Assembly: GCF_003334815.1 (NCBI RefSeq)
Contig: NZ_QOWO01000013.1
Strand: one strand, 5' to 3'
From: Escherichia coli
Lineage (GTDB): Bacteria > Pseudomonadota > Gammaproteobacteria > Enterobacterales > Enterobacteriaceae
DNA: 64,000 nt
The notes under the pieces were generated by a model, which saw only the letters and a program-made list of their open reading frames with translations, was not told where the DNA came from and ran no database searches. The first letter of the stretch is position 1. The number at the start of each line of letters is the position of its first letter. The position numbers and the translations under genes were made by a program. This document shows, one piece after another, positions 3,124 through 60,004 of the stretch.

Positions 3124-3130
3124 CGTGCGC

Positions 3131-4315: not shown

Positions 4316-4488
4316 TATCACGGATGCTTTTATAAAAATAATTAGAATAAGTCACTACGCATTCCCATAAATGCGGGAGAGGAATCTATCACATTGATGA
4401 ATGTTAGCCAGATATACGCCAGGAATGGGGAATTGTTTAGCGGCAGAATATGTAAACAAAAGCGGCAATAAATGTTGCCGGGAGAGAT

Positions 4489-22015: not shown

Positions 22016-22307
22016 GCGCCTCGATTGCTACATGGAGGCGGGGCGCATTATAGCTACTTCCTTGAGTTTCTACATCCCCCAGATCAGTTTTTTCCGCCTA
22101 ATACACGCAGCGTATTATCACGAAAGCATTATAGTTCATATAAAACCCATATTTTACAATGATATATGAGCGGAATTAACGCTACCACGATCACATAAAA
22201 CAAGAATCATAAATTAATAACCAGATATCGGAATATTCGCTCTCACAGGGATGGTTTACAAAATGCGTTATCGGTCTCAGCACCCCTATAGCATCAAGGA
22301 AAAGCAG

Positions 22308-23695
22308 ATGAAGAGTGAAGTGTTGTCCGTTAAAGAGAAAATTGGTTATGGCATGGGAGACGCCGCCAGCCACATTATTTTCGATAACGTAATGTTATAT
22401 ATGATGTTCTTTTATACCGATATTTTTGGCATTCCTGCCGGTTTTGTCGGAACCATGTTTTTGGTCGCTCGTGCACTGGATGCGATTTCCGATCCTTGCA
22501 TGGGGTTGTTGGCCGATCGAACGCGCTCTCGCTGGGGTAAATTTCGTCCGTGGGTACTGTTTGGCGCACTGCCATTCGGGATCGTCTGTGTACTGGCCTA
22601 TAGCACGCCAGATCTCAGTATGAACGGCAAAATGATCTATGCAGCAATTACTTACACCCTACTTACCTTACCTTACTTTATACCGTCGTCAATATCCCTT
22701 ACTGCGCATTGGGTGGTGTAATCACCAATGACCCGACTCAGCGTATCTCGCTGCAATCCTGGCGTTTTGTGCTGGCGACCGCGGGAGGCATGCTTTCTAC
22801 TGTTCTGATGATGCCACTGGTTAATTTAATTGGCGGTGATAATAAACCACTCGGTTTCCAGGGCGGTATCGCGGTCCTTTCCGTGGTGGCATTCATGATG
22901 CTGGCATTTTGTTTCTTCACCACTAAAGAACGCGTTGAAGCACCACCTACAACAACGTCTATGCGGGAAGATTTACGTGATATCTGGCAAAACGACCAGT
23001 GGCGGATTGTCGGTTTACTAACCATTTTCAATATCCTGGCGGTGTGCGTACGCGGTGGGGCGATGATGTATTACGTCACATGGATTTTGGGCACGCCGGA
23101 AGTGTTTGTCGCTTTTCTCACCACTTATTGCGTGGGTAACCTGATTGGTTCCGCACTGGCAAAACCTCTGACCGACTGGAAATGTAAAGTCACTATCTTC
23201 TGGTGGACGAACGCCCTGCTGGCAGTGATTAGCCTCGCGATGTTCTTTGTTCCCATGCAGGCCAGCATCACTATGTTTGTCTTCATCTTCGTGATTGGTG
23301 TGTTGCATCAACTGGTGACACCTATCCAGTGGGTAATGATGTCCGATACCGTCGACTACGGCGAGTGGTGCAATGGTAAACGCCTGACCGGGATCAGTTT
23401 TGCTGGCACGCTGTTTGTGCTCAAACTGGGGTTGGCCTTCGGCGGCGCTCTTATCGGCTGGATGCTGGCTTATGGCGGATATGATGCGGCAGAAAAAGCG
23501 CAGAACAGCGCCACGATTAGCATCATTATTGCGCTATTCACGATTGTTCCGGCGATCTGTTATTTGCTGAGCGCGATTATCGCTAAACGCTACTACTCAC
23601 TCACGACGCACAATCTGAAAACCGTTATGGAACAGCTGGCTCAGGGTAAACGCCGTTGCCAGCAACAATTCACCTCTCAAGAAGTGCAGAACTAA
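22308..23695 (+). pseudogene. yicJ: GPH-family sugar:cation symporter YicJ, disrupted by a +5 frameshift
   Basis: Reading frame switches at 22671..22675 within cttac-cttac-cttac (22662..22676); ORFs 22251..22721 and 22709..23695 together span 1388 nt, i.e. 460 codons + stop + 5. Confidence 0.8.
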
Positions 23696-27905: not shown

Positions 27906-29297
27906 TTACTGTTTTTCTGGTGGGAAAATCAGATTCAGCACGATGGCAGTAATACCGCCCGCGGCGATCCCGGAGGAGAGCAGGTTTTTCAGCCATTCAG
28001 GGGCAAACTGCAAAATCAGCGGCTGCTGAGACACGCCCAGACCAACCGCCAGCGACAGCGCGATAATCAGAATCGCCCGACGGTTCAGCGGCTCACGAGA
28101 AACGATACGCACACCGGAGGCGGCGATGGTGCCAAACATTACAAGCGTTGCGCCGCCCAGAACCGGTTCTGGAATGTGTTGTACAAAACCGCTCACTGCC
28201 GGGAACAGACCCAGCACGATCAACATCAGCGCGACGACAAAACCGACATAGCGGCTGGCAACACCAGTCAACTGGATCACTCCGTTGTTTTGCCCGAAGC
28301 AGGAGTTCGGGAAGGTGTTAAACACCGCCGAAACAAACGAGTTCAGGCCGTTTGCCAGCACGCCGCCTTTCAGGCGTTTCATGTACAGCGGACCGGACAC
28401 TGGCTGTTCGGAAACGTCAGAGGTCGCCGTGATATCGCCAATGGTTTCCAGCGAAGTGATCATAAAGACCAGCATCAGCGGCAGCAGCAGACTCCATTCA
28501 ATGCCAAGACCGTAATAGAGCGGCGTTGGCACCATAATCAGTTCTTGCGTCATAGGTTCGTTGCTTTCTGGCAACATGCCCATAAACCACGCCAGCGCAT
28601 ATCCGGCCGCCATCGCAATTACCAGTGAGGCCACGCGTAAGTAAGGGTTACGTTGACGGTTAAGCAGGATAATTAAGGCTAAGACCACGCCTGCCAGCAG
28701 CAGATTTTTCGGTGCGCCGAAGGTGTTATCGCTCATGGCTGCGTAACCGCCGCCAATGGACGTTAACCCAACCTGAATTAGCGACAGGCCGATAATCATC
28801 ACCACAACGCCAGAAACCAGCGGCGTAATAATGCGGCGCGCCAGATGCAGAACGCGGGAGATCACCATCTCGGTGCAACTTGCCAGCATCAACGTGCCGA
28901 ACAAAGCCGCCATCATGGTAGGAACATCAGCACCACCGGTTTTCAGCGCGGTACCGCCCATAATCAGCGGGGCAACAAAGTTGAAGCTGGTGCCCTGAAT
29001 AGACAACAGCCCGGAGCCAACCGGACCCCAGGCCTTAATTTGAATAATCGATGCCACACCGGAGGCAAACAGCGACATACTAATAATGTGTTGCGTGTCT
29101 TGTGCCGGTAAACCCAGCGCCTGGCAGATTAATAGCGCTGGCGTGATCACCGCAACGAACATCGCCAGCAGATGCTGACAGGCGGCAAACAGGGTTTGAG
29201 GAAGCGGCGGACGATCTTCAAGACGGTAAATCAGTTCGCTGTTTTGAGTCTGCGCAACCGGTTGCGCATTTTCTGACTCGAGGGTGGAAACAGACAT
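27906..29297 (-). CDS. xanP: Xanthine permease (NCS2)
   Basis: 463 aa from [10 protein letters not shown]... Confidence 0.9.
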
Positions 29298-29576
29298 CGA
29301 AAACAATCCCGTGGTAGCAAAGCGGGCATTTTAGCTGACCGAAAGAGAAAAGCAAACGTTTGCCACATCCTCATCTAAATATTTAAATGAGATAAATGCA
29401 CTTTTTTATATAACTTTTGGTATTTTTCTGCTTAAAATCCATGCCATTTGTTCATTAACAGCTGAGAATTTGACCCAGGAAAGCATAACTCGATACCCGT
29501 CATAGTTCATGAAGTTGCCACTGCGCGATGAAGTATGACGAGTATGAAAGAGTGATGCGGATACAAAGGAGTAACT

Positions 29577-30782
29577 ATGTTTCATCTCGATACTTTAGCA
29601 ACGCTTGTTGCCGCAACGCTGACGTTGCTGCTCGGGCGTAAGTTGGTCCATTCCGTCTCCTTTTTGAAGAAATACACCATACCGGAACCTGTTGCGGGTG
29701 GTTTGTTGGTGGCGCTGGCGCTACTAGTACTGAAAAAAAGCATGGGCTGGGAAGTCAACTTTGATATGTCCCTGCGCGATCCGTTAATGCTGGCTTTCTT
29801 CGCCACCATTGGCCTGAACGCCAACATTGCCAGTTTGCGTGCCGGTGGGCGTGTGGTTGGCATCTTCTTGATTGTGGTTGTTGGTCTGTTGGTGATGCAA
29901 AATGCCATTGGCATTGGTATGGCTAGCTTGTTAGGGCTTGATCCGCTGATGGGGCTGTTGGCCGGTTCTATTACGCTTTCCGGCGGTCACGGTACGGGCG
30001 CTGCGTGGAGTAAATTGTTCATTGAACGTTATGGCTTCACCAATGCGACGGAAGTGGCGATGGCCTGTGCAACGTTCGGTCTGGTGCTGGGCGGCTTGAT
30101 TGGCGGTCCGGTGGCGCGCTATCTGGTGAAACACTCCACCACGCCGAACGGTATTCCGGATGACCAGGAAGTCCCGACGGCGTTTGAAAAGCCGGATGTG
30201 GGACGCATGATCACCTCGTTGGTGCTGATTGAAACTATCGCGCTGATTGCTATCTGCCTGACGGTGGGGAAAATTGTTGCGCAACTTTTGGCTGGCACTG
30301 CTTTTGAACTGCCGACCTTCGTCTGTGTACTGTTTGTTGGCGTGATTCTGAGCAACGGTCTGTCAATAATGGGCTTTTACCGCGTCTTTGAGCGTGCGGT
30401 ATCCGTGCTGGGTAACGTAAGCTTGTCGTTGTTCCTGGCGATGGCGTTGATGGGGCTGAAACTGTGGGAGCTGGCTTCGCTGGCGCTGCCGATGCTGGCG
30501 ATTCTGGTGGTACAGACCATCTTCATGGCGTTGTATGCCATCTTCGTTACCTGGCGCATGATGGGCAAAAACTACGATGCGGCAGTGCTGGCTGCGGGTC
30601 ACTGTGGTTTTGGCCTCGGTGCAACGCCAACGGCAATCGCCAACATGCAGGCGATCACTGAACGCTTTGGCCCGTCGCACATGGCGTTTTTGGTGGTGCC
30701 GATGGTCGGTGCGTTCTTTATCGATATCGTCAATGCGCTGGTAATTAAGTTGTATTTGATGTTGCCGATTTTTGCCGGTTAA
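29577..30782 (+). CDS. gltS: Sodium/glutamate symporter
   Basis: 401 aa. Confidence 0.95.
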   Translation: MFHLDTLATLVAATLTLLLGRKLVHSVSFLKKYTIPEPVAGGLLVALALLVLKKSMGWEVNFDMSLRDPLMLAFFATIGLNANIASLRAGGRVVGIFLIVVVGLLVMQNAIGIGMASLLGLDPLMGLLAGSITLSGGHGTGAAWSKLFIERYGFTNATEVAMACATFGLVLGGLIGGPVARYLVKHSTTPNGIPDDQEVPTAFEKPDVGRMITSLVLIETIALIAICLTVGKIVAQLLAGTAFELPTFVCVLFVGVILSNGLSIMGFYRVFERAVSVLGNVSLSLFLAMALMGLKLWELASLALPMLAILVVQTIFMALYAIFVTWRMMGKNYDAAVLAAGHCGFGLGATPTAIANMQAITERFGPSHMAFLVVPMVGAFFIDIVNALVIKLYLMLPIFAG

Positions 30783-33032: not shown

Positions 33033-33037
33033 GGCAC

Positions 33038-33727
33038 TTACCCTGCAGCCTGCATAGTAGCCCACCAGTCGGCATCAGCTTCGATCTCGCCTTGCTGATT
33101 GACGTGGGGATAAGGCAGGCCTTTGCGTTTTGCGACTTTCGCCAGCACCGGATAGCCGCCTTCAAACAACAGGCGTTGTTGCTCTGCTTCCGGCAACATG
33201 CTGTTTTCACGCAGGTACATGCCTGCATTTTGCCGCTGACGCTGGGCTTCGTAAAGAATGAGGGCTGAGGCAACGGAAACATTCAGCGACTGCACCATGC
33301 CGATCATCGGAATGATGATGTCCTGATCCGCCAGGGCCAATGCTTCCTGCGTGATGCCCGTTTTCTCCTGTCCCATCAAAATGCAGGTCGGGCGAGTGTA
33401 ATCAATTTCGCGGAAATCGACAGCGTTATCAGAAAGATGGGTTGCCAGAATCTGCATGCCCTGGCCTTTGAGATGAGCGACGGCATCGCCAATGGTGCGG
33501 TGTGTTTTCACCTGTACCCAGCTGTTACTACCCGCCGCTGCCGAAGCCATGGTGCGCATGCGGCTACCAGGCCAGACGGCGTGAACTTCATGTACGCCAA
33601 CGGCATCTGCGGTACGAATAATCGCAGAAACGTTATGAGGTTTGTGGACCTGCTCCATGCAGACGGTCAGATCAGGCTGCCGCCTGGCGAGCATTTCGCA
33701 GATGCGTGCATAACGTGTTGGGTTCAT
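33038..33727 (-). CDS. trmH: tRNA (Gm18) 2'-O-methyltransferase
   Basis: 229 aa. Confidence 0.9.
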   Translation of the reverse strand: MNPTRYARICEMLARRQPDLTVCMEQVHKPHNVSAIIRTADAVGVHEVHAVWPGSRMRTMASAAAGSNSWVQVKTHRTIGDAVAHLKGQGMQILATHLSDNAVDFREIDYTRPTCILMGQEKTGITQEALALADQDIIIPMIGMVQSLNVSVASALILYEAQRQRQNAGMYLRENSMLPEAEQQRLLFEGGYPVLAKVAKRKGLPYPHVNQQGEIEADADWWATMQAAG

Positions 33728-33733
33728 AAAACA

Positions 33734-35842
33734 TTAATTTCGGTTTCGGGTGACTTTAATCACGTCTGGCATCACGCGGATTTTGCGCATGATATTCGCC
33801 AGATGCACACGGTCACGAGCGGTCAGACGAATAAAGGCGCTGTAGACGCGACCATCTTTCTCTTCCGTATTCAAACTTTGAATATTCGAAGTCGTGGTGT
33901 TAATTGCCGCCGTCAGGTTTGCCAGCGCACCCTGATGATTGAACATCTCCACCTTGATTTCGGTGATGAACTCCTGCGCCGTCTCTTTATCCCATTCCAC
34001 AGCCATAAACTTCTCTGGCTCTTTCTGGTAGCCACGGATATTACGGCAGGATTCATGGTGGATCACCAGACCTTTACCGGGGCTGACGTGGGCGATAATC
34101 GGGTCGCCAGGAATAGGGCGGCAGCATTTCGCAAAGGTGATCAGCACGCCATCGGCACCTTTAATGGGCAGATGTCCGTGGCTTTGGGTTGCCGGTGGAA
34201 TGGAGGCGTCCCCATGTTGCAGATTTTTCGCGACCACCACGCTCATTGCGTTACCAAGTCCGATTTCTGCCAGCAGATCGTCAAGCGTTGCCAGCTTCAT
34301 GCGATCCAGCTCGCGCTGAATATTTTCCTGCGGGATTTCATTCAGCTTACGGCTACCACCCAAAGCATGGTTGAGCAGACGACGGCCCAGGCTTACAGAA
34401 TCATCACGCTTGAGGTTTTTCAGCAACTGACGAATTTTGGCGCGCGCTTTCGAGCTAACGACAAAGTTCAGCCAAGCGGCATTCGGGCGAGCGCCCGGAG
34501 CGGTAATGATTTCAACGGTTTGACCGCTGGTAAGCGGCTGCGACAGCGGGTAAGGCTGGCGGTCAACGCGTGCGCCCACGCAGGCATGACCGATATCGGT
34601 ATGCACTGCATAAGCGAAGTCGACGGGCGTTGCACCGGCAGGCAGCTCGACAATGCGCCCTTCCGGTGTGAAAACGTAAATCTCATCCGGGAAGAGATCG
34701 GATTTAACGCTCTCGATAAATTCAAACGAACTACCGGCGCTCTGTTGCAGCTCCAGCAGGCTTTGCATCCAGCGCTGGGCGCGGATTTGTGCGGTAGTAC
34801 TGGTTTCGCCGTGCTCTTTATAAGCCCAGTGCGCGGCAACACCCATCTCCGCCATCTGGTCCATATCTTCGGTACGGATCTGGACCTCAACCGGCACACC
34901 GTGCGGGCCGATCATCGAGGTGTGCAAAGACTGATAGCCGTTCGCTTTTGGAATGGCGATATAGTCTTTCACGCGGCCCGGACGCGGCTTGTACAGGCTG
35001 TGCATCTGGCCCAGCACGCGATAACAGGTGTCAGAATCATTGACGATCACGCGGAAAGCGTAGATGTCCATGATCGAGTGAAAACGCTGCTCTTTGAGCA
35101 CCATTTTGCAGTAAATCGAATAAAGATGCTTCTCGCGACCACTGACGCGGCACGGTATTCCCGCTTCCTGCAAACGCCCTTCGATTTCAGAAAGAATCTT
35201 CTGGATCATCTCTTTACGGTTGCCGCGCGCGGCTTTCACCACTTCTTTGATTACGCGATAACGGTTGGGATACAGCGCCTCAAAACCCAGCTCTTCGAGT
35301 TCGGTTTTAATGTGGTGGATACCTAAACGGTGCGCCAGCGGGCTATAAATTTCGAGAGTTTCACGGGCGATGCGGCGACGTTTGTCCGGGCGAAGTGAGC
35401 CCAGCGTGCGCATGTTGTGGGTACGGTCGGCAAGTTTGATGAGGATGACGCGGATATCCTGCACCATCGCCATAATCATCTTGCGAAAGTTTTCGGCCTG
35501 CGCCTCTTTCTTATCGCGGAACTTGAGTTTATCAAGTTTCGACACCCCCTCTACCAGCTCGGCGACGCTTTTACCAAAAAGCTGTTCCATATCCTGGTAG
35601 GTGGCGGGAGTATCTTCAATCACGTCATGCAGCAGCGCCGCCATCAGCGTTTCATAGTCGAGTTTCATCTCGGCCAGAATGCAGGCAACCGCTACCGGGT
35701 GCGTGATATAGGGTTCACCGCTTGAACGTGTTTGCCCCTCGTGAGCATCACGTGCAACGAGATACGCCTGCCGCAGACGCTTGATTTGGTCTTCCGGCAG
35801 GTAGGTTTGAATCAGTTGATTCAGGCTTTCAAACAGATACAA
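33734..35842 (-). CDS. spoT: Bifunctional (p)ppGpp synthetase/hydrolase SpoT
   Basis: 702 aa; start codon is TTG (reverse complement of caa at 35840..35842). Confidence 0.95.
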   Translation of the reverse strand: MYLFESLNQLIQTYLPEDQIKRLRQAYLVARDAHEGQTRSSGEPYITHPVAVACILAEMKLDYETLMAALLHDVIEDTPATYQDMEQLFGKSVAELVEGVSKLDKLKFRDKKEAQAENFRKMIMAMVQDIRVILIKLADRTHNMRTLGSLRPDKRRRIARETLEIYSPLAHRLGIHHIKTELEELGFEALYPNRYRVIKEVVKAARGNRKEMIQKILSEIEGRLQEAGIPCRVSGREKHLYSIYCKMVLKEQRFHSIMDIYAFRVIVNDSDTCYRVLGQMHSLYKPRPGRVKDYIAIPKANGYQSLHTSMIGPHGVPVEVQIRTEDMDQMAEMGVAAHWAYKEHGETSTTAQIRAQRWMQSLLELQQSAGSSFEFIESVKSDLFPDEIYVFTPEGRIVELPAGATPVDFAYAVHTDIGHACVGARVDRQPYPLSQPLTSGQTVEIITAPGARPNAAWLNFVVSSKARAKIRQLLKNLKRDDSVSLGRRLLNHALGGSRKLNEIPQENIQRELDRMKLATLDDLLAEIGLGNAMSVVVAKNLQHGDASIPPATQSHGHLPIKGADGVLITFAKCCRPIPGDPIIAHVSPGKGLVIHHESCRNIRGYQKEPEKFMAVEWDKETAQEFITEIKVEMFNHQGALANLTAAINTTTSNIQSLNTEEKDGRVYSAFIRLTARDRVHLANIMRKIRVMPDVIKVTRNRN

Positions 35843-35860
35843 GGGCGACCCGCTTTGTGA

Positions 35861-41567: not shown

Positions 41568-41693
41568 AGACGTTCCTGTTTATAAAAGGAGAGGTGGAAG
41601 GATTATAGCCATCGATGCCTTGTCAGGATAGGAATAACCGCCGGAAGTCCGTATAATGCGCAGCCACATTTGTTTCAAGCCGGAGATTTCAAT

Positions 41694-42410
41694 ATGCGTC
41701 CAGCAGGCCGTAGCAATAATCAGGTGCGTCCCGTTACCCTGACTCGTAACTATACAAAACATGCAGAAGGCTCGGTGCTGGTCGAATTTGGCGATACCAA
41801 AGTGTTGTGTACCGCCTCTATTGAAGAAGGCGTGCCGCGCTTCCTGAAAGGTCAGGGCCAGGGCTGGATCACCGCAGAGTACGGCATGCTGCCACGTTCT
41901 ACCCACACCCGTAACGCTCGTGAAGCGGCGAAAGGTAAGCAGGGTGGACGCACAATGGAAATCCAGCGTCTGATCGCCCGTGCTCTTCGCGCGGCAGTAG
42001 ATTTGAAAGCGCTGGGTGAGTTCACCATTACGCTGGACTGCGACGTGCTTCAGGCTGATGGTGGCACGCGTACCGCGTCGATTACGGGTGCCTGCGTGGC
42101 GCTGGTAGATGCGCTACAGAAGCTGGTGGAAAACGGCAAGCTGAAAACCAATCCGATGAAAGGGATGGTAGCCGCAGTTTCTGTCGGAATTGTGAACGGC
42201 GAAGCGGTTTGCGATCTGGAATACGTTGAAGACTCTGCCGCAGAGACCGACATGAACGTAGTGATGACCGAAGACGGGCGCATCATTGAAGTGCAGGGGA
42301 CGGCAGAAGGCGAGCCGTTCACCCATGAAGAGCTACTCACCTTGTTGGCTCTGGCCCGAGGGGGAATCGAATCCATTGTAGCGACGCAGAAGGCGGCGCT
42401 GGCAAACTGA
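41694..42410 (+). CDS. rph: Ribonuclease PH, apparently full length
   Basis: 238 aa from [10 protein letters not shown]... to ...[18 protein letters not shown]; 5-G run at 42360..42364 keeps the frame open. Confidence 0.9.
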
Positions 42411-50061: not shown

Positions 50062-50144
50062 CTTTATTCTGCTTAACTTAACCAGACAATCACACAAAAG
50101 AGTCGCTAGTGGAAAAGCCATTTCGAAAAATCCTGGTCATAAAG

Positions 50145-51179
50145 ATGCGATATCATGGGGATATGTTATTAACTACTCCTGTCATCAGTACGCTCAAGCA
50201 GAATTATCCTGATGCAAAAATCGATATGCTGCTTTATCAGGACACCATCCCTATTTTGTCTGAAAACCCGGAAATTAATGCGCTCTATGGGATAAGCAAT
50301 AAAGGTGCGGGAACTTTCGATAAAATTAAAAATGTGCTTTCGTTGATAAAAACTCTGCGTGCGAATAATTATGACCTGGTCATTAATCTTACGGATCAGT
50401 GGATGGTGGCGCTGCTGGTACGTTGTTTACCTGCACGGATGAAAATATCGCAACTTTATGGTCATCGGCAGCATGGTATTTGGAAAAAAAGCTTCACACA
50501 CTTAGCGCCAATACACGGTACACATATTGTTGAGCGTAATTTATCGGTCCTTGAGCCATTAGGTATTACCGATTTCTACACCGACACAACAATGAGTTAC
50601 GCCGAAGATTGCTGGAAGAAGATGCGCCGGGAATTAGATGCCCTGGGCGTAAAAGATCATTATGTTGTCATCCAACCGACAGCGCGTCAGATATTTAAGT
50701 GTTGGGATAACGATAAATTTTCTAAGGTTATCGATGCGCTGCAACAGCGAGGCTATCAGGTTGTGCTAACCTGTGGGCCCTCGGCAGATGATCTCGCTTG
50801 TGTAGATGAGATTGCACGAGGTTGCGAAACAAAACCCATTACTGGCCTTGCAGGTAAAACACGTTTTCCTGAACTGGGTGCATTAATTGATCATGCAGTG
50901 CTTTTTATTGGTGTGGATTCTGCGCCGGGACATATTGCAGCGGCAGTGAAAACGCCAGTCATTAGTCTATTTGGTGCAACGGATCACGTATTCTGGCGTC
51001 CCTGGACCGAGAATATTATTCAATTCTGGGCGGGGAATTATCAGAAAATGCCGACCCGGCATGAACTTGACCGCAACAAAAAATATCTTTCTGTTATCCC
51101 AGCGGAGGATGTGATCGCCGCTACGGAAAAGCTGTTGCCAGAAGATGCCCCTTCAGCTGACAGGAATGCACAATTATGA
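50145..51179 (+). CDS. waaQ: LPS heptosyltransferase III
   Basis: 344 aa from MRYHGDMLL...; the ORF track's GTG at 50109 would add 12 codons. Confidence 0.85.
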   Translation: MRYHGDMLLTTPVISTLKQNYPDAKIDMLLYQDTIPILSENPEINALYGISNKGAGTFDKIKNVLSLIKTLRANNYDLVINLTDQWMVALLVRCLPARMKISQLYGHRQHGIWKKSFTHLAPIHGTHIVERNLSVLEPLGITDFYTDTTMSYAEDCWKKMRRELDALGVKDHYVVIQPTARQIFKCWDNDKFSKVIDALQQRGYQVVLTCGPSADDLACVDEIARGCETKPITGLAGKTRFPELGALIDHAVLFIGVDSAPGHIAAAVKTPVISLFGATDHVFWRPWTENIIQFWAGNYQKMPTRHELDRNKKYLSVIPAEDVIAATEKLLPEDAPSADRNAQL

Positions 51180-52300
51180 TCGTGGCGTTTTGTTTATATA
51201 AATATTTTCCATTTGGTGGGCTTCAACGTGACTTTATGCGCATTGCATCAACAGTTGCCGCACGGGGCCACCATGTTCGGGTATATACACAGTCGTGGGA
51301 AGGCGATTGCCCGAAAGCATTTGAGCTTATTCAGGTGCCAGTTAAGTCCCATACCAACCATGGACGCAATGCAGAATATTATGCCTGGGTACAAAATCAT
51401 CTCAAAGAGCATCCCGCAGATCGCGTTGTTGGGTTTAATAAGATGCCTGGCCTGGATGTTTATTTTGCCGCTGATGTTTGTTACGCCGAGAAAGTTGCGC
51501 AAGAAAAAGGTTTTTTATATCGTTTAACATCACGATATCGCCATTATGCCGCATTTGAGCGAGCGACTTTCGAGCAGGGTAAATCGACGAAACTTATGAT
51601 GCTGACCGATAAGCAAATCGCCGATTTCCAGAAGCATTATCAAACTGAACCTGAACGTTTTCAAATTCTTCCTCCCGGTATTTATCCGGACAGAAAATAC
51701 AGTGAGCAAATCCCAAACAGCCGTGAAATTTATCGCCAGAAAAATGGCATAAAAGAGCAACAAAACTTATTACTGCAGGTTGGATCAGATTTTGGCCGTA
51801 AAGGTGTAGATCGCTCAATTGAAGCTTTGGCATCGTTACCGGAATCATTACGTCACAATACGCTTTTATTTGTTGTTGGTCAGGATAAGCCGCGAAAATT
51901 TGAAGCGCTGGCAGAAAAACTCGGCGTGCGGAGCAATGTGCATTTCTTCTCCGGTCGCAATGATGTGTCAGAATTAATGGCAGCCGCTGATTTATTACTG
52001 CATCCCGCTTATCAGGAAGCCGCGGGTATCGTTCTTCTAGAAGCGATCACTGCTGGGTTACCTGTTTTAACAACAGCGGTATGTGGGTACGCGCATTATA
52101 TTGCGGATGCCAATTGTGGAACGGTCATCGCTGAACCTTTCTCTCAGGAACAATTAAATGAAGTTTTACGTAAAGCGTTAACTCAGTCGCCATTGCGAAT
52201 GGCCTGGGCGGAGAATGCTCGCCATTATGCCGATACTCAGGATTTGTATAGCTTGCCAGAAAAAGCCGCGGATATCATTACAGGTGGTTTAGATGGTTGA
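51176..52300 (+). CDS. waaG: LPS core glucosyltransferase I
   Basis: 374 aa; ATGA overlap with waaQ. Confidence 0.95.
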
Positions 52301-53090
52301 ATTAAAAGAGCCGCTTGCCACACTTTGGCGTGGTAAAGATGCTTTTGCAGAGGTCAAAAAACTGAACGGCGAGGTCTTTCGTGAACTGGAGACTCGTCGT
52401 ACATTACGCTTTGAACTGTCCGGGAAAAGCTATTTTCTTAAATGGCACAAGGGGACGACATTAAAAGAGATTATAAAAAATCTACTCTCATTGCGGATGC
52501 CCGTTTTGGGCGCAGACAGAGAGTGGCACGCTATTCATCGCCTGAGTGATGTTGGCGTTGATACAATGAAGGGCATTGGGTTTGGCGAAAAAGGGTTAAA
52601 TCCATTAACTCGCGCATCATTTATTATTACCGAAGATCTCACTCCCACAATTAGCCTTGAAGATTATTGTGCCGATTGGGCAGTCAACCCGCCTGATATA
52701 CGTGTTAAGCGTATGCTGATCGCACGTGTAGCAACTATGGTGCGTAAAATGCATACTGCAGGGATAAATCACCGCGACTGTTACATTTGCCACTTTTTGC
52801 TTCATTTGCCATTTACTGGCCGGGAAGATGAATTAAAAATTTCAGTTATCGATCTGCATCGGGCACAGATACGTGCAAAAGTACCGCGCCGCTGGCGCGA
52901 TAAAGACCTGATTGGTTTATATTTCTCATCAATGAATATTGGCCTGACGCAAAGAGATATCTGGCGATTTATGAAGGTTTATTTTGGGATGCCTTTACGC
53001 AAAATATTGTCTCTTGAACAGAATTTATTGAACATGGCAAGCGTTAAGGCCGAGCGTATTAAAGAGCGAACACAACGCAAAGGATTATAA
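52293..53090 (+). CDS. waaP: LPS core heptose(I) kinase
   Basis: 265 aa; 8-nt overlap with waaG. Confidence 0.95.
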
Positions 53091-53126
53091 AAATATTTAT
53101 TAGTATGTACTGGAACTAACTTTATT

Positions 53127-54062
53127 ATGACTATTTATTTTATAAATTGGGTTGCAGATTATGAATTAAAAATGATTCAGTACCTGAAAAAAAAGTACAA
53201 GATAAAAAATATAACAACACCAAAAAAATATAACTGGATTAATAAAAAAATATCAAAAATAGGGATGGATAATGCATGGCTGGGGCGATTATTCATCAAG
53301 CATTACCTCAATGATATTAAAAAAGATGACATAATTATCATTAATGACAGTGTTGTTAATAAAGGTATCAATAAACAAATATTAAAAAATATTAACTGTC
53401 ATAAAGTTTTGCTTCTAAGAAATACTGTTGGCGAAGATTTTATTCTTGATAACGCGAATTATTTCGATATTATATATGATTTTGAGCATAGATTTATAGG
53501 GAATGAAAAGATCAAGGCAATAGAACAATTTTTTCCTATAGGAATGGATGAAATTAGAAATTATAGTTTATCTGACAAAAATAACAGCCAGCCAATATGT
53601 TTTTTCCTTGGTCGTGATAAAGGGCGTCTTCAAATAATTAATGAGTTAGCCGAGAGATTAACAACACTAGGATGTAAGCTAGATTTTAATGTTGTCAAAG
53701 ATAAGACATCATCTACGACTTCAAAGTATTTGATTGAAAAACAAATATCTTATGAAGAGAATATTAGAAGAACATTAAATGCTAATATAATTGTTGATAT
53801 AACCAAAGAAAACCAATCTGGCTGGACTCTTCGTATACTTGAGGCACTATTTTTCAATAAAAAATTAATTACTAATAATATAAATGTATTTGGTTCAGAA
53901 ATCTATAGTGAATCTCGCTTTTTTATAATAGGTCATGATGATTGGGATAAGTTAGAGTATTTTATTAACTCATCTGTTAAACCAATGGATTATGATAGTT
54001 TATATAAATTCAGTCCAGATAAAATGATGTCAACGATTGTTTCTGATTTTATAGACAAATAA
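53127..54062 (+). CDS. waaS: LPS core biosynthesis protein WaaS (K-12 core type)
   Basis: 311 aa; very AT-rich. Confidence 0.8.
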
Positions 54063-54105
54063 AACCGTTAAAACAGTGAGTTTTACTCAATTAATGAGAG
54101 TTTCT

Positions 54106-55185
54106 ATGAAAATAGCGTTTATCGGCGAAGCTGTTTCTGGATTTGGCGGCATGGAAACTGTCATCCGTGATGTTATTACTACCTTCAGGCAACAACATAT
54201 CCAAAGTGAAATGTTTTTCTTTTGTCGTAATGACAAAATGGATAAGGGATGGCTGGAAGGTATTAAATACTCATGTTCATTTTCCAATATTCGTTTAGGT
54301 TTTTTGCGTCGGGCGAAACATATTCATGCTCTAAGTAAATGGCTTCAGGAGTACCAACCAGATATCGTTATTTGTATTGATGTGATCTCCTGCCTGTTTG
54401 CCGCAAAAGCACGTAAAAAATCAGGAATTGATATGCCAGTATTTTCATGGCCACATTTTTCTTTAGATCACAAAAAACATGCTGAATATATCACCTGTGC
54501 CGACTATCATTTAGCAATCAGCTCTGGCATTAAACAGCAAATGATTAATCGAGGTGTAGCAGAATCGACGATAAATGTTATTTTTAATCCCGTCGAAACT
54601 AAAGACTCAGTCATTCCCGCGCCCGAGGAAGGTGAAACGGCAACGTTTATTTATGTTGGGCGTATGAAATTTGAAGGCCAGAAAAGAGTTAAAGACCTGC
54701 TTGATGGCTTATCACAAGCGAAAGGTAACTGGAAACTCCATGTATTGGGTGATGGCTCCGATTTCGAAAAATGCCAGGCTTATGGTAGAGAATTAAATAT
54801 TGATGATCGAATTGTCTGGTATGGTTGGCAACAATATCCCTGGGAATTGGTCCAGCAAGATATTGAAAAAGTGAGTGCGTTATTGCTCACGTCATCTTTT
54901 GAAGGTTTCCCAATGACCCTACTTGAAGCCTTGTCGTGGGGGATTCCTTGTATCAGTGCCGATTGTGTCTCCGGGCCTGCTGACATTATTCAACCTGATG
55001 TCAATGGCCATCTGTATCAACCGGGAGATATTGCTGGTTTTGTAACTCTTCTAAATAAATATATAGCAGGTGAAATTCATATCGAACATGAAAAAATTCC
55101 TGCGTCGATCGATGAATTTTACCAATCGAAGTATTACGATAGATTACATAAGGTAATTATTTCTGCTATTTCCCGGAGGAAATAA
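54106..55185 (+). CDS. waaB: LPS alpha-1,6-galactosyltransferase
   Basis: 359 aa from MKIAFIGEAV... Confidence 0.85.
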   Translation: MKIAFIGEAVSGFGGMETVIRDVITTFRQQHIQSEMFFFCRNDKMDKGWLEGIKYSCSFSNIRLGFLRRAKHIHALSKWLQEYQPDIVICIDVISCLFAAKARKKSGIDMPVFSWPHFSLDHKKHAEYITCADYHLAISSGIKQQMINRGVAESTINVIFNPVETKDSVIPAPEEGETATFIYVGRMKFEGQKRVKDLLDGLSQAKGNWKLHVLGDGSDFEKCQAYGRELNIDDRIVWYGWQQYPWELVQQDIEKVSALLLTSSFEGFPMTLLEALSWGIPCISADCVSGPADIIQPDVNGHLYQPGDIAGFVTLLNKYIAGEIHIEHEKIPASIDEFYQSKYYDRLHKVIISAISRRK

Positions 55186-56204
55186 TGCAGCAGGTGTTTT
55201 TCCAGGAAACTGAGTTTCTTAATTCAGTTATTGATTATGATCATAAAGTAGAAACAGAAAATCTTTGTCTGGACATCGCTTATGGAACTGACAAAAACTT
55301 TCTATTTGGTTGCGGAATTTCGATTGCTTCAATATTAAAATATAATGAAGGAAGTCGATTGTGTTTCCATATTTTTACTGATTATTTTGGTGATGATGAT
55401 CGTAAGTATTTTGATGCCCTGGCGTTGCAGTATAAAACCAGAATTAAAATATATCTGATTAATGGTGATCGACTGCGCTCATTGCCTAGCACTAAGAATT
55501 GGACTCATGCAATATATTTTCGTTTTGTTATTGCAGATTACTTTATTAATAAGGCGCCTAAAGTCCTTTATCTGGATGCAGATATCATTTGTCAGGGGAC
55601 TATTGAGCCACTAATTAATTTCTCATTTCCTGACGATAAAGTCGCAATGGTTGTTACAGAAGGGCAAGCTGACTGGTGGGAAAAACGCGCCCATTCGTTA
55701 GGTGTTGCGGGAATTGCTAAAGGTTACTTTAACTCCGGTTTTTTATTGATTAATACTGCCCAATGGGCGGCTCAGCAGGTTTCTGCACGAGCTATTGCAA
55801 TGCTAAATGAGCCAGAAATAATCAAAAAAATAACACATCCTGATCAGGATGTGTTAAATATGTTGCTGGCGGATAAACTTATTTTCGCTGATATTAAATA
55901 TAACACCCAGTTCAGCTTAAATTATCAACTCAAAGAAAGCTTTATAAACCCAGTAACCAACGATACTATTTTTATCCATTATATCGGGCCAACCAAGCCC
56001 TGGCATGATTGGGCCTGGGATTATCCTGTATCACAAGCCTTTATGGAGGCAAAAAATGCTTCGCCATGGAAGAATACGGCGTTGCTGAAACCGAACAATA
56101 GCAATCAATTAAGATATAGCGCAAAACATATGCTTAAAAAGCATAGATATCTAAAAGGATTTAGCAACTATCTTTTTTATTTTATTGAAAAGATAAAGCA
56201 TTAA
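55185..56204 (+). CDS. waaO: LPS alpha-1,3-glucosyltransferase (GT8)
   Basis: 339 aa; TAATG overlap with waaB. Confidence 0.85.
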   Translation: MQQVFFQETEFLNSVIDYDHKVETENLCLDIAYGTDKNFLFGCGISIASILKYNEGSRLCFHIFTDYFGDDDRKYFDALALQYKTRIKIYLINGDRLRSLPSTKNWTHAIYFRFVIADYFINKAPKVLYLDADIICQGTIEPLINFSFPDDKVAMVVTEGQADWWEKRAHSLGVAGIAKGYFNSGFLLINTAQWAAQQVSARAIAMLNEPEIIKKITHPDQDVLNMLLADKLIFADIKYNTQFSLNYQLKESFINPVTNDTIFIHYIGPTKPWHDWAWDYPVSQAFMEAKNASPWKNTALLKPNNSNQLRYSAKHMLKKHRYLKGFSNYLFYFIEKIKH

Positions 56205-56243
56205 AACTGGGAAACTATAAAGTAATGATATAAGGGTAGCATT

Positions 56244-57260
56244 GTGGACTCATTTCCTGCCATAGAGATAGATAAAGTTAAAGCCTGGGATTTTCGGCTA
56301 GCTAATATAAATACTTCTGAATGTTTAAATGTTGCCTATGGTGTCGATGCTAATTATCTTGATGGTGTAGGTGTTTCCATCACATCAATTGTCCTAAATA
56401 ATCGATATATTAATCTTGATTTTTATATTATTGCTGATGTTTATAATGATGGTTTTTTTCAAAAAATTGCAAAGCTTGCAGAGCAAAACCAATTAAGAAT
56501 CACGTTATATAGAATTAACACTGATAAGCTCCAGTGCTTGCCTTGTACACAGGTCTGGTCAAGAGCAATGTACTTCCGTTTATTTGCATTTCAATTATTG
56601 GGTTTAACGCTTGATCGTTTGCTTTATCTTGATGCAGATGTTGTTTGTAAAGGCGATATTAGCCAACTATTACATCTGGGTTTAAATGGAGCGGTTGCTG
56701 CTGTTGTTAAAGATGTTGAGCCAATGCAAGAAAAGGCGGTATCCAGGTTGTCTGATCCTGAATTACTTGGGCAGTACTTTAATTCCGGTGTCGTTTATTT
56801 AGACTTAAAAAAATGGGCTGACGCAAAACTAACAGAAAAAGCGTTGTCTATTCTTATGAGTAAAGATAATGTTTATAAATACCCTGATCAGGATGTTATG
56901 AATGTCTTACTGAAAGGGATGACATTATTTTTGCCTCGTGAGTACAATACAATTTATACAATTAAAAGTGAATTAAAAGACAAAACACATCAAAACTATA
57001 AAAAGCTGATTACAGAAAGTACTCTTCTTATTCATTATACAGGTGCAACTAAACCGTGGCACAAATGGGCAATTTATCCATCGGTAAAATACTATAAAAT
57101 AGCTTTAGAAAATTCCCCCTGGAAAGATGACTCTCCACGAGATGCGAAATCAATTATTGAATTTAAAAAAAGATATAAACATCTTTTAGTGCAACATCAT
57201 TATATCTCAGGAATTATAGCAGGAGTCTGTTATCTTTGCCGAAAATATTACCGTAAATAA
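56244..57260 (+). CDS. waaJ: LPS alpha-1,2-glucosyltransferase (GT8)
   Basis: 338 aa; GTG start; paralogous to waaO. Confidence 0.85.
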   Translation: MDSFPAIEIDKVKAWDFRLANINTSECLNVAYGVDANYLDGVGVSITSIVLNNRYINLDFYIIADVYNDGFFQKIAKLAEQNQLRITLYRINTDKLQCLPCTQVWSRAMYFRLFAFQLLGLTLDRLLYLDADVVCKGDISQLLHLGLNGAVAAVVKDVEPMQEKAVSRLSDPELLGQYFNSGVVYLDLKKWADAKLTEKALSILMSKDNVYKYPDQDVMNVLLKGMTLFLPREYNTIYTIKSELKDKTHQNYKKLITESTLLIHYTGATKPWHKWAIYPSVKYYKIALENSPWKDDSPRDAKSIIEFKKRYKHLLVQHHYISGIIAGVCYLCRKYYRK

Positions 57261-57277
57261 CATTTAACTGGTTTATT

Positions 57278-57976
57278 ATGATTCAGAAGAGCAAGATCAA
57301 AGACTTGGTTGTTTTTACCGATGAAAACAATTCAAAGTACCTCAATGTATTAAATGACTTCTTGTCTTATAATATAAATATCATCAAGGTTTTTCGTTCT
57401 ATTGATGATACAAAAGTTATGCTTATTGATACCGATTACGGTAAATTGATTCTTAAGGTTTTTTCTCCGAAAGTTAAGCGTAACGAACGTTTCTTTAAGT
57501 CTCTGTTAAAAGGTGATTATTACGAACGCCTTTTTGAGCAAACCCAAAAAGTACGAAATGAAGGGTTAAATACACTCAATGACTTTTATTTATTGGCTGA
57601 ACGGAAAACCTTACGTTTTGTCCATACTTATATCATGATCATCGAGTATATTGATGGCATAGAGTTGTGTGATATGCCCGATATTGATGATGCGCTAAAA
57701 AATAAAATTCAGCAATCAATTAATGCCTTACATCAACATGGCATGGTTTCTGGCGACCCCCATCGTGGTAACTTCATTATAAAAAATGGTGAGGTTCGAA
57801 TTATCGATCTCTCCGGAAAGCGTGCTTCAGCGCAGCGTAAAGCGAAAGATCGTATTGACTTAGAGCGTCATTACGGTATTAAAAATGAGATTAGAGATCT
57901 AGGCTATTATCTTTTAGTATATCGTAAAAAAATGCGCAATTTTATTCGGCGTTTGAAAGGGAAACCAGCGCGCTAA
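57278..57976 (+). CDS. waaY: LPS core heptose(II) kinase
   Basis: 232 aa. Confidence 0.85.
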   Translation: MIQKSKIKDLVVFTDENNSKYLNVLNDFLSYNINIIKVFRSIDDTKVMLIDTDYGKLILKVFSPKVKRNERFFKSLLKGDYYERLFEQTQKVRNEGLNTLNDFYLLAERKTLRFVHTYIMIIEYIDGIELCDMPDIDDALKNKIQQSINALHQHGMVSGDPHRGNFIIKNGEVRIIDLSGKRASAQRKAKDRIDLERHYGIKNEIRDLGYYLLVYRKKMRNFIRRLKGKPAR

Positions 57977-58046
57977 AAAAAATCCCACAATTACATGTCT
58001 TCACCAGGACAGTTTTAAGCGGAGTTATTTATTTCACAGGTTTATC

Positions 58047-58898
58047 ATGAAGAATATTAGATACATTGACAAAAAAGATGTTGAAAACCTGATTGAAAAT
58101 AAAACATCTGATGATGTTATTATTTTTCTTTCGGGCCCTACATCGCAAAAAACACCTTTGTCAGTATTACGAACAAAGGATATTATTGCTGTCAATGGTT
58201 CTGCGCAATATCTGTTAAGTAATAATATCGTTCCTTTTATATATGTACTTACAGATGTCCGATTTTTACATCAGCGTCGTGATGATTTTTATAAATTTAG
58301 CCAGAGAAGTCGTTATACCATAGTAAACGTTGACGTTTATGAACACGCTTCCAAAGAAGATAAACTTTATATCCTCCAGAACTGCCTCGTATTACGGTCC
58401 TTTTACCGTCGGGAAAAAGGTGGTTTTATAAAGAAGATTAAATTTAATATTTTGAGACAGATTCACAAAGAACTGCTGATCTCTGTACCGTTGTCTAAAA
58501 AAGGTCGTCTGGTTGGATTTTGCAAGGACATTAGTCTTGGTTATTGCTCATGCCATACTATTGCCTTTGCTGCAATTCAAATCGCATATTCACTTAAGTA
58601 TGCGCGGATTATTTGTTCTGGTCTTGATTTAACGGGTAGCTGTTCTCGTTTCTATGATGAGAATAAAAATCCCATGCCCTCGGAATTAAGTAGGGATTTA
58701 TTCAAAATATTGCCATTTTTTCGTTTTATGCATGATAATGTAAAAGATATTAATATTTATAATTTATCAGATGATACAGCTATTTCTTACGATGTAATTC
58801 CATTTATTAAACTTCAAGACATCAGTGCAGAAGAATCAAAAGATATGACAAGAAAAAAAATGCAATATAGAACTTCAACCGATTCTTATGCTAATTAA
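58047..58898 (+). CDS. waaZ: LPS core biosynthesis protein WaaZ
   Basis: 283 aa. Confidence 0.8.
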   Translation: MKNIRYIDKKDVENLIENKTSDDVIIFLSGPTSQKTPLSVLRTKDIIAVNGSAQYLLSNNIVPFIYVLTDVRFLHQRRDDFYKFSQRSRYTIVNVDVYEHASKEDKLYILQNCLVLRSFYRREKGGFIKKIKFNILRQIHKELLISVPLSKKGRLVGFCKDISLGYCSCHTIAFAAIQIAYSLKYARIICSGLDLTGSCSRFYDENKNPMPSELSRDLFKILPFFRFMHDNVKDINIYNLSDDTAISYDVIPFIKLQDISAEESKDMTRKKMQYRTSTDSYAN

Positions 58899-58930
58899 TC
58901 ATCCTGAAACTAAAATAATATGGTATAAAA

Positions 58931-60004
58931 ATGCGCTTAGGAACTTTTCACAAAAAGAAAAGATTTTATATAAACAAAATCAAGATTAATTTCCTTTCTT
59001 TTTTATTTCGTAATAAAATAAATAATCAAATTACAGATCCAGCACAAGTTAAATCATGCCTTATTATTCATGATAATAATAAACTTGGTGATCTAATTGT
59101 ATTAAGTTCGATTTATCGTGAACTTTATAGTAAAGGGGTTAAAATAACTCTTCTCACAAATAGAAAGGGTGGGGAATTTCTCTCTAATAATAAAAATATA
59201 TTTGAGTTCTGTATTAAAGAATCAACCGGTTTTCTTGAAATGCTTACTCTATGTAAGCATCTGCGGGATTTACAGTTCGATATTGTATTAGACCCCTTTG
59301 AAACTATGCCCTCATTTAAGCATAGCTTAATATTATCAAGTTTAAAAGATTCTTACATTCTGGGTTTTGATCATTGGTATAAGCGTTACTATTCATTTTA
59401 CCATCCCCACGATGAATGTTTAAAAGAACATATGAGTACACGAGCAATAGAAATACTGAAGCATATTTATGGTGAGGGTAAATTTTCCACCAACTACGAC
59501 TTGCATTTACCAGTAGATGTTGAAGATAAAATAAAAGAATTTATTGGAGATACAAGAATAGTCATTATTAATCCATTAGGTGCAAAAAAAATATGCCGTC
59601 TTACGTTTGAGCAAATAAAAGTTATATATCAAGAAGTGAAAACACACTTTGAAAATTATCGGATTATATTTACCGGGTTACCGCAAGATTTATTGACAAT
59701 ACCAATACTTGAAATCGAAACACTACCATTTGATGAGTTTATTTATACCGTTGCGTTGACCAAGTATAGTGATTTTGTCATTTCTGTTGATACAGCTCTT
59801 GTTCATATCGCTGCGGCTTATCATAAACCAACGCTTGCATTTTACCCTAATTCACGTACTCCGGAATATCCCTCGCATTTAATTTGGTCCCCGAATCATC
59901 ATAAATCTATACAAATAGTATCCCCAACATATACGGTAAAAGATATCGATACTGAAACTTTAACTAATTCAGTAAAGAGATTAAGTTGTATAGATAAGAA
60001 GTGA
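58931..60004 (+). CDS. waaU: LPS heptosyltransferase IV
   Basis: 357 aa. Confidence 0.8.
   Translation: MRLGTFHKKKRFYINKIKINFLSFLFRNKINNQITDPAQVKSCLIIHDNNKLGDLIVLSSIYRELYSKGVKITLLTNRKGGEFLSNNKNIFEFCIKESTGFLEMLTLCKHLRDLQFDIVLDPFETMPSFKHSLILSSLKDSYILGFDHWYKRYYSFYHPHDECLKEHMSTRAIEILKHIYGEGKFSTNYDLHLPVDVEDKIKEFIGDTRIVIINPLGAKKICRLTFEQIKVIYQEVKTHFENYRIIFTGLPQDLLTIPILEIETLPFDEFIYTVALTKYSDFVISVDTALVHIAAAYHKPTLAFYPNSRTPEYPSHLIWSPNHHKSIQIVSPTYTVKDIDTETLTNSVKRLSCIDKK

Follow-up and report, generated by a model that had tools for sequence, protein, structure and literature searches.

A 629-codon open reading frame antisense to spoT and trmH in Escherichia coli, very probably a by-product of spoT codon use

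Does a long open reading frame (ORF) lying opposite a key gene of the stringent response encode a product, or does it merely mirror the codons chosen on the other strand? The question is raised by a 64,000-nucleotide stretch of E. coli DNA (the window, throughout), in which a plus-strand frame at 33437..35326 opens with ATG, continues for 629 codons and closes with TAA, for a total length of 1,890 nt. An earlier note had drawn attention to this frame, and both the ORF listing and the translation confirmed its position and extent. No other unannotated antisense ORF in the 64 kb reaches 200 amino acids. Our analysis indicates that it is very probably a non-functional "shadow" frame that results from the codon use of spoT and is not a gene, and the sequence features described below suggest that no product is made from it. 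Were the ORF functional, the stringent-response locus would have a second product; nothing that we found supports this.

Geometry of the antisense frame

The genuine gene at the locus is spoT (33734..35842, minus strand), which starts with TTG and encodes the 702-residue bifunctional (p)ppGpp synthetase/hydrolase. It is followed on the same strand by trmH (33038..33727), encoding the 229-residue tRNA Gm18 2'-O-methyltransferase. Because the window differs by small indels from the MG1655 record, genes were mapped onto it by sequence anchors. The sense side opposite the ORF consists of spoT codons 173–702 and trmH codons 1–97. The plus-strand frame has register 0 relative to both genes, which bears out the original description of the ORF as codon-aligned with the two of them; they share this register because the spacer between them is 6 nt. 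Codon alignment has the consequence that stop codons are possible in the antisense frame only opposite sense TTA, CTA and TCA codons, and since trmH follows spoT after 6 nt without a change of register, the frame extends into that second gene as well.

The stop-free stretch exceeds the ORF itself, comprising 685 codons (33269..35323, plus strand), and in this frame neither ATG, GTG nor TTG occurs ahead of 33437. It is bounded on one side by a TGA at 33266..33268, opposite Ser154 of trmH (TCA, the one such codon in that gene), and on the other by the terminating TAA at 35324..35326, opposite Leu173 of spoT (TTA). TTA, CTA and TCA had been said to be missing from about 530 spoT codons, and codons 174–702, 529 in number, indeed contain none. 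Within the frame, the CGA at 35075..35077 (plus strand), opposite spoT Ser256 (TCG), is a site that is open in a lineage-specific manner, and its variation is described below.

TTA, CTA and TCA codons in spoT

Only three TTA, CTA or TCA codons (positions 40, 149 and 173) are found among the 101 leucine and serine codons of spoT. The codon usage of the window predicts about 15 (Poisson P=1.8e-4), and when leucine and serine codons were resampled from window, GC3-matched or genome-average usage, the probability of a run of at least 685 codons was between <1e-5 and 8.5e-5 under a null that treats every gene as sharing one codon usage, which is not true of real genes. A beta-binomial model that includes gene-to-gene scatter gave a probability of 0.012 for three or fewer such codons among 101 and of about 0.0006–0.001 for the run of at least 685. 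The depletion is thus real, but it is not exceptional genome-wide. Among 78 long genes in a 364-kb sample, spoT was the third lowest in its use of the three codons, inside the normal scatter, with pflB and rpsA more depleted. The earlier characterization of the depletion as unusually strong stands with respect to the observed count, which compares with roughly 12–15 expected, and is qualified by the rank of spoT among other genes.

Overall codon bias had been suggested as the explanation for the depletion, and this proved partly correct. Across the genes of the window, use of TTA, CTA and TCA declines with rising codon bias (Spearman rho=-0.79), and over 81 species the use of these codons in spoT follows the background of each genome (r=0.77). 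However, the codon bias and GC3 of spoT itself still predict about 12 of these codons where 3 are observed (P about 0.01–0.05), a discrepancy that counts against the by-product reading. High expression of spoT was rejected as the cause, since its Fop of 0.557 is only the 10th of 53 genes and recG, with a similar Fop, uses the three codons at 16% of its leucine and serine positions. To our knowledge, spoT is not known as a highly expressed gene, unlike pflB, rpsA and pykF, a point that also tells against the by-product reading. A general avoidance of rare or A-ending codons was likewise rejected as the whole cause because other A-ending or minor codons in spoT are present at observed/expected ratios of 0.71–0.87, as compared to 0.20 for TTA/CTA/TCA, a contrast that likewise counts against the by-product reading.

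That ratio, together with a depletion stronger than codon bias and GC3 predict, is what might be expected if selection acting on the sense strand, and not chance, kept the three codons out of spoT, for example through independence from the minor tRNAs reading UUA, CUA and UCA or through avoidance of AT-rich mRNA triplets. Such selection would be compatible with the by-product reading and would refine it: the ORF would still be a by-product, with the depletion being adaptive for spoT. The comparison between species is also in its favor, as it is in favor of a cause residing in the sense gene more generally. TTA, CTA and TCA make up a fraction of 0.078 in spoT and 0.123 in its operon neighbors gmk, rpoZ, trmH and recG, and spoT is the lower of the two in 76 of 81 species (Wilcoxon P=3e-14). 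On the other hand, most species show no more than a modest effect: the spoT genes of 80 Enterobacterales carry between 1 and 24 of these codons at scattered positions, with a median of about 7 and the highest numbers, up to 24, in Yersinia. Moreover, the non-preferred leucine codons CTT and CTC are enriched in spoT, not depleted, and TCA40, TCA149 and TTA173 have been retained in all 15 of the E. coli sequences compared. On balance, we regard sense-strand selection as an unlikely cause. What codon bias leaves over comes from normal variation between genes, together with a single recent silent change at codon 256.

Breakage and selection within and beyond E. coli

Given this codon usage, the by-product reading predicts how a frame of this length would arise. 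In a codon-aligned frame stops come only from sense TTA, CTA and TCA, and opposite a gene that uses these codons rarely across Enterobacterales, the turnover of silent sites would open and break long stop-free antisense stretches at random. A silent A>G transition at spoT codon 256 (TCA>TCG) in the K-12-like lineage took away the last internal antisense stop and so joined a frame of 546 codons to the 83 codons beyond it, and the frame runs on into trmH in the same register, 6 nt past the end of spoT. The full-length ORF depends on this one silent substitution at Ser256.

The distribution of the codon 256 alleles is in line with this scheme. Of the 14 divergent E. coli lineages sampled, 13, B, O157:H7 and B2 among them, have TCA at codon 256, which places a TGA in the antisense frame. 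Exact 50-nt allele searches over about 5,384 complete E. coli genomes, a proxy for this one site, returned TCG in 938 and TCA in 4,435, so that about 82% of complete genomes have the TGA at 35075..35077 that shortens the ORF to 546 amino acids. The 546-residue version stays open in several lineages, such as B2, which is a point against the by-product reading, and further antisense stops occur in various strains opposite spoT codons 363, 464, 494 and 541. As for the two bounding stops, trmH Ser154 is encoded by TCA in 13 of the 14 E. coli lineages sampled, and TTA at spoT Leu173 is shared by 15 of 15 E. coli sequences, by E. albertii and by 29 of 80 species. The population thus provides a natural experiment: in four of every five E. 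coli genomes a silent spoT variant adds a stop to the frame, with the SpoT protein essentially unchanged.

Outside E. coli, the region is interrupted in 77 of the 80 other Enterobacterales species. The frame of E. albertii meets stops opposite spoT codons 256, 306, 309, 400, 433 and 494. Only two other species among the 80, represented by a Pseudocitrobacter MAG and Edwardsiella ictaluri, are free of stops over codons 174–702, and these are not close relatives. The ORF is therefore not kept intact across strains or taxa, contrary to what is expected of a functional antisense overlapping gene.

This pattern bears directly on the proposal that the frame, in its 629-residue K-12-lineage form or its 546-residue form, is a young antisense overlapping gene or proto-gene with weak expression, like those described in EHEC (pop, asa, ano, laoB). 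Low-level translation of such a very young, lineage-restricted frame, held open by weak selection, strikes us as highly improbable, and breakage at differing positions in most strains and species is among the main reasons. The proposal does draw some support from the length of the ORF, which is unusual for a host gene not known as highly expressed, from the strong rejection of the null with homogeneous codon usage, and from the existence of reports of translated antisense ORFs in E. coli. It also draws on a mild deficit of polymorphism: in E. coli, 3 stop-creating silent variants were seen in spoT codons 174–702 when 9.0 were expected (Poisson P=0.02). The same under-representation is, however, an argument for sense-strand selection, and it does not single out maintenance of the ORF because selection against minor codons gives the same deficit.

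The antisense residues themselves are unconstrained. When E. coli is compared with E. albertii, the antisense translation differs at 154 of its 529 residues and SpoT at 10 of 529, and the antisense translation changes at the full silent-site rate of spoT. Values of dN/dS are 0–0.02 for the sense frame and >1 for the antisense frame. Nor is the part of spoT covered by the ORF poorer in silent-site variation: dS is 0.66 there and 0.33 in the uncovered 5' part of the gene. Similarly, third-base identity at four-fold sites over 80 species is 0.457 in the covered part and 0.513 in the remainder. Neither the dN/dS values nor the four-fold sites of the 80 species gave any sign of purifying selection on the antisense frame, which argues against the proto-gene proposal. 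Silent-site conservation that is not raised under the ORF also speaks against a functional RNA encoded there, an alternative that is considered in the next section.

Gene signals, homologues and known antisense ORFs

Signals of gene expression were sought on the plus strand in and around the ORF. A consensus scan of positions 32600–35900, crude enough to count only as a weak negative, found no promoter-like site, and terminator-like matches in the same interval were at the level of shuffled sequence (5 versus 3.8+/-2.1). The earlier note had seen no Shine-Dalgarno sequence at the start, and our equally crude scan agrees: the 20 nt before 33437 (TCGACAGCGTTATCAGAAAG) contain none of the cores GGAG, GAGG, AGGA and AAGG. 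The translation has an atypical composition, with 6.4% His, 7.2% Phe, 2.1% Glu and 2.2% Lys, and it matches no Pfam-A family even at E<=10, including PF10712. A search of 5.8 billion proteins returned only 6 matches, all to unnamed metagenome clusters without a Pfam domain and none of them full length. On the one metagenome contig inspected, two antisense ORFs had been called where spoT itself was left uncalled. Among the genomes listed, the RefSeq annotation under the ORF consists of spoT and trmH only.

Taken with the breakage and the lack of constraint, the absence of expression signals and of credible homologues supports the codon-usage by-product reading favored by the earlier note. The same findings weigh against a proto-gene, as does the published survey of E. 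coli overlapping genes by Zehentner et al. (MG1655 and BL21), in whose text and 18 supplementary files spoT and trmH are absent. Antisense expression at spoT is also not reported in a review by Ardern, an asRNA preprint, or a paper on a "moonlighting antisense ORF". The supplements of a PIRT-seq study do mention spoT and trmH, in a gene list and through a same-strand, out-of-frame ORF of 14 amino acids in trmH. These mentions were rejected as evidence for the antisense frame because they do not bear on it.

The plus strand could in principle be transcribed into a functional non-coding antisense RNA controlling spoT or trmH, with the open frame being incidental. Support for this idea is of a general kind, consisting of accounts of widespread antisense transcription in E. 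coli. The lack of a promoter-like site, the background level of terminator-like matches, and the lack of any Rfam family match in the region all run counter to it, and it leaves the depletion of stop codons unexplained. We therefore consider a regulatory RNA very improbable.

As a by-product of codon use, the ORF falls into a described class. Long "shadow" ORFs in antiparallel frame -1, associated with stop-codon avoidance, have been treated by Mir et al. 2012 (PMC3454372), where Merino 1994 and Silke 1997 are cited on the subject, and in bioRxiv 10.1101/724807, whose run-length probability formula is the same as the one used here. The class includes the ORFs of >1,800 bp opposite dnaK that were formerly annotated as "NAD-glutamate dehydrogenase" (Pfam PF10712). 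Like these, the spoT ORF is codon-aligned, improbably long under genome-average usage, and located opposite a highly conserved gene, and its translation is free of negative selection, in contrast to the host gene, on which purifying selection is strong. It differs in its distribution: ORFs opposite dnaK are seen again in many taxa, whereas the spoT ORF is fully open in just one minority lineage of E. coli and two scattered species. The expression standing of spoT, which differs from that of pflB, rpsA and pykF, would place it in the subset termed "long frame -1 ORFs in lowly expressed genes" by Mir et al. (PMC3454372).

Antisense overlapping genes with experimental support provide a second comparison. 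They include pop (antisense to ompA), asa, ano, laoB and nog1 of E. coli O157:H7 (PMC7103648, PMC6294744, PMC5960689, PMC5810103) and olg1 and olg2 of Pseudomonas aeruginosa, for which purifying selection has been reported (PMC8850804). These candidates are reported to have phenotypes, signals in RNA-seq and Ribo-seq, and promoters or start sites that have been mapped. The spoT ORF resembles them in being embedded antisense in annotated genes and in its taxonomic restriction, but it lacks their signals and constraint, and most conspecific strains carry stops within it. At 1,890 nt it would also be longer than any of these (pop, 603 nt; olg2, 1,536 nt). If the proto-gene proposal were true, the frame would exceed in length every antisense overlapping gene known in bacteria, and it would lie inside the key stringent-response gene.

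The locus carries a caution, namely that accident can produce even an ORF of about 1.9 kb whose probability under average codon usage is below 1e-5. In screens for overlapping genes, the null should let codon usage vary from gene to gene, and population and sister-species data should be examined before function is invoked. In its register, the low TTA/CTA/TCA use of its host, the absence of antisense selection, and the presence of comparable ORFs in the genome, the spoT frame has each of the features of a shadow ORF. Antisense ORFs of the codon-aligned kind are common: in a 300-kb sample of MG1655, they reach 448 amino acids opposite pykF, 379 opposite rpsA, 370 opposite acnB and 331 opposite hslU, and the one opposite pflB, at 750 amino acids, is longer than that opposite spoT.

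An antisense frame in register with spoT and trmH

Positions 33000-36000 of the window match E. coli K-12 MG1655, as well as several further E. coli genomes, at 100% identity. The locus is single-copy and chromosomal in 5,425 of 5,426 complete E. coli genomes, where it is annotated as recG, trmH, spoT and rpoZ. The RefSeq annotation of the MG1655 record places trmH (33038..33727) and spoT (33734..35842) on the minus strand and holds no plus-strand feature at the locus. ORF listing and translation recovered the 629-codon plus-strand ORF described in the earlier note (33437..35326), which starts with ATG and lacks internal stops. The stop-free frame is longer, at 685 codons: it opens at 33269, upstream of the ATG, and is bounded on the plus strand by a TGA at 33266-33268 (opposite trmH Ser154, TCA) and a TAA at 35324-35326 (opposite spoT Leu173, TTA). 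Because the spacer between spoT and trmH is 6 nt, the two genes share one register, and the antisense frame was found to be codon-aligned with both, as had been claimed. Antisense stops are therefore possible only opposite sense TTA, CTA or TCA. Just three such codons occur in spoT, at positions 40, 149 and 173 (TTA/CTA in 1 of 64 Leu codons, TCA in 2 of 37 Ser codons), in agreement with their reported absence over about 530 spoT codons. In the most divergent strain sampled, E. coli CUPF09 (NZ_CP182142.1; 93.9% identity), the spacer measures 129 nt (1147..1275 of the extracted locus) rather than the usual 6 nt, indicating an insertion of about 120 nt between spoT and trmH.

No gene-like signals were found for the ORF. 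The 20 nt upstream, TCGACAGCGTTATCAGAAAG, contain none of GGAG, GAGG, AGGA or AAGG, bearing out the earlier remark that a Shine-Dalgarno sequence is absent; what else the note described in the sequence holds as well. No promoter-like site turned up in a consensus scan of the plus strand from 32600 to 35900, and terminator-like matches in the region did not exceed the shuffle level. The region has no Rfam match, and the ORF translation has no Pfam match even at E<=10. His (6.4%), Phe (7.2%) and Cys (2.7%) are abundant in the translation and Glu, Lys, Pro and Tyr scarce, a composition that sets it apart from typical E. coli proteins and that reverse-complemented codons produce. Searched against 5.8 billion predicted proteins, the translation matched six clusters, all unnamed, all from metagenome assemblies and none full length. 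On the sole contig inspected (ERZ28635543 scaffold_3855), two plus-strand ORFs of 511 and 131 aa, without Pfam match, were called at 2501..4435 between trmH and rpoZ, and spoT itself was left uncalled. We read this as a gene-caller mis-call; it illustrates a route by which antisense spoT translations enter protein databases. A separate candidate coding sequence listed in a PIRT-seq supplement (PMC12350097), MHASAKCSPGGSLI, encodes 14 aa out of frame inside trmH; it maps to 33667..33711 on the minus strand, which is the trmH strand and not the antisense one.

Conservation and constraint of the antisense frame

Fourteen E. coli lineages, ranging from 99.3% down to 93.9% identity, were compared. 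Thirteen of them carry TCA in place of TCG at spoT codon 256, which places an antisense TGA at window 35075-35077 and shortens the ORF to 546 aa. Further antisense stops occur in other strains, opposite codon 541 in O157:H7 and others, and elsewhere opposite codon 464, 363 or 494. SpoT itself differs by 0-1 residues in 13 of the 14 strains and by 5 in CUPF09. Silent changes in spoT thus freely abolish the antisense frame, and the ORF is not conserved within E. coli. Reciprocal exact 50-nt searches of complete genomes counted 938 with TCG and 4,435 with TCA among about 5,384 with a match. Since E. albertii also carries TCA at codon 256, this codon was most likely ancestral, with TCG arising later in the K-12-like lineage.

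A scan of GTDB species genomes yielded 80 Enterobacterales spoT loci (90-98% protein identity), with 1 to 24 TTA/CTA/TCA codons per gene at scattered positions. In the sister species E. albertii six of them fall within the region (codons 256, 306, 309, 400, 433 and 494), and positions frequently occupied by them include 309 (33 of 80 species), 372, 494, 434, 224, 365 and 464. Only a Pseudocitrobacter MAG and Edwardsiella ictaluri also lack them throughout codons 174-702, the part of spoT under the ORF. Long open stretches occur elsewhere with differing boundaries (796 codons in Enterobacter asburiae, 575 in a Pantoea sp., 541 in Dickeya oryzae), the pattern that independent accidents would be expected to leave.

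Over codons 174-702, sense-frame dN/dS was 0-0.02 in all comparisons. In the antisense frame the ratio lay far above 1, because the third position of each sense codon is the first of an antisense codon. The E. coli and E. albertii translations differ at 154 of 529 residues in the antisense frame, against 10 residues in SpoT. A functional overlapping gene is expected to depress silent-site variation in its host. dS was instead higher under the ORF than in the 5' 173 codons outside it (0.10 vs 0.08 for K-12 against B2; 0.66 vs 0.33 for E. coli against E. albertii), and third-base identity at four-fold sites across the 80 species was 0.457 under the ORF and 0.513 outside (P=0.07). The antisense frame thus evolves without constraint. 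As a separate observation, the 5' quarter of spoT (codons 1-173; 35324..35842, minus strand) shows less silent-site divergence than the remainder of the gene. Its minor codons TCA40, TCA149 and TTA173 are kept in all 15 E. coli sequences compared, and TCA40 in 39 of 80 species; silent-site constraint or a differing recombination history could be responsible.

With the frame broken in most strains and species, and without constraint, signals or usable homologues, the earlier reading of the ORF as a codon-usage by-product is supported. The ORF is very probably an accidental, lineage-specific open frame, caused by the low TTA/CTA/TCA content of spoT together with one recent silent substitution at codon 256. 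That it is a weakly translated proto-gene is highly improbable.

Depletion of TTA, CTA and TCA in spoT

Whether the depletion exceeds chance depends on the null model chosen. Under window codon usage, with the low-GC waa cluster left out, about 15 TTA/CTA/TCA codons are expected in spoT and 3 are observed (Poisson P=1.8e-4). The waa/rfa LPS-core genes (50109..60004) have very low GC3 (0.23-0.41) and use these codons two- to three-fold more than the rest of the window, so that window-wide nulls are inflated unless they are excluded. When Leu and Ser codons were redrawn from window, GC3-matched or genome-average usage, a run of at least 685 had P from <1e-5 to 8.5e-5; like the first null, this presumes one codon usage for all genes, which is untrue. 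A beta-binomial fitted on the window's genes, which allows gene-to-gene scatter, gave P=0.012 for at most 3 of 101 and P=0.0006-0.001 for the run. With the codon bias and GC3 of spoT itself taken as given, both computed without Leu and Ser, about 12 are expected and P was about 0.01-0.05.

Apart from the spoT/trmH ORF, the window holds no unannotated antisense ORF that reaches 200 aa. As an empirical check, a further 300 kb of MG1655 was sampled. Window and sample together (364 kb) hold 78 genes in which Leu and Ser codons number at least 70, and of these spoT ranks third lowest in TTA/CTA/TCA use, after pflB and rpsA. Opposite pflB, where 1 of 98 Leu and Ser codons is of this kind, a codon-aligned minus-strand ORF of 750 aa (28048..30300 of the sampled MG1655 sequence, NZ_CP032667.1) covers nearly the whole gene and exceeds the spoT case in length. 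Others lie opposite pykF (448 aa), rpsA (379 aa), acnB (370 aa) and hslU (331 aa). The depletion, which the earlier note had called unusually strong, is therefore genuine and within the lower few percent of genes, but antisense ORFs of this type and length are nothing exceptional in the genome.

Ordinary codon bias is part of the cause. Within the window, TTA/CTA/TCA use drops with preferred-codon frequency (rho=-0.79), in which spoT ranks 10th of 53 genes. The cross-species statistics suggested in the earlier note showed that in 76 of 81 species these codons are scarcer in spoT than in gmk, rpoZ, trmH and recG (0.078 vs 0.123), and that their use in spoT follows genome background (r=0.77); the sense gene has therefore long made little use of them, and ordinary bias explains only a part of this. 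Depletion is stronger for TTA/CTA/TCA (0.20) than for other minor or A-ending codons (0.71-0.87), and of the silent polymorphisms in E. coli, 3 create antisense stops where 9.0 would be expected (P=0.02). Sense-strand selection specific to these three codons might account for both and would be compatible with a by-product; we give it a minor place and read the extra depletion and the stop-variant deficit as selection against minor codons plus scatter. None of these codon findings needs, or is evidence for, an antisense product.

Known antisense ORFs, and differences from MG1655

Long frame -1 ORFs have been known since the 1990s and were ascribed largely to host-gene codon bias, and Mir et al. 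noted some opposite genes without high expression (PMC3454372). A survey of 929 genomes, based on the Leu/Ser formula that was also applied here, reported 2,898 antiparallel ORFs that significantly avoid stop codons, most of them in frame -1, whose translations are by Ka/Ks generally without negative selection; its showcase is the dnaK antisense 'glutamate dehydrogenase' (PF10712) (bioRxiv 10.1101/724807). The spoT ORF shows every feature of this class that was tested. It lacks the conservation, constraint and signals of its own that characterise the experimentally supported antisense genes pop, asa, ano, laoB and olg1/olg2.

The window is K-12-like yet not MG1655, with 16 differing sites in 64 kb relative to NZ_CP032667.1. 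An extra G in a G-run at 42364 restores the frame of rph (41670..42410, plus strand), which is an intact ORF here and is annotated as frameshifted in the MG1655 record (the rph-1 allele). yicJ (22251..23695, plus strand) is split into ORFs of 156 and 328 aa by an extra CTTAC at 22672, the third copy of a repeat present twice in the MG1655 record, where yicJ is intact at 460 aa; the break appears to be a frameshift from slippage at this short tandem repeat.
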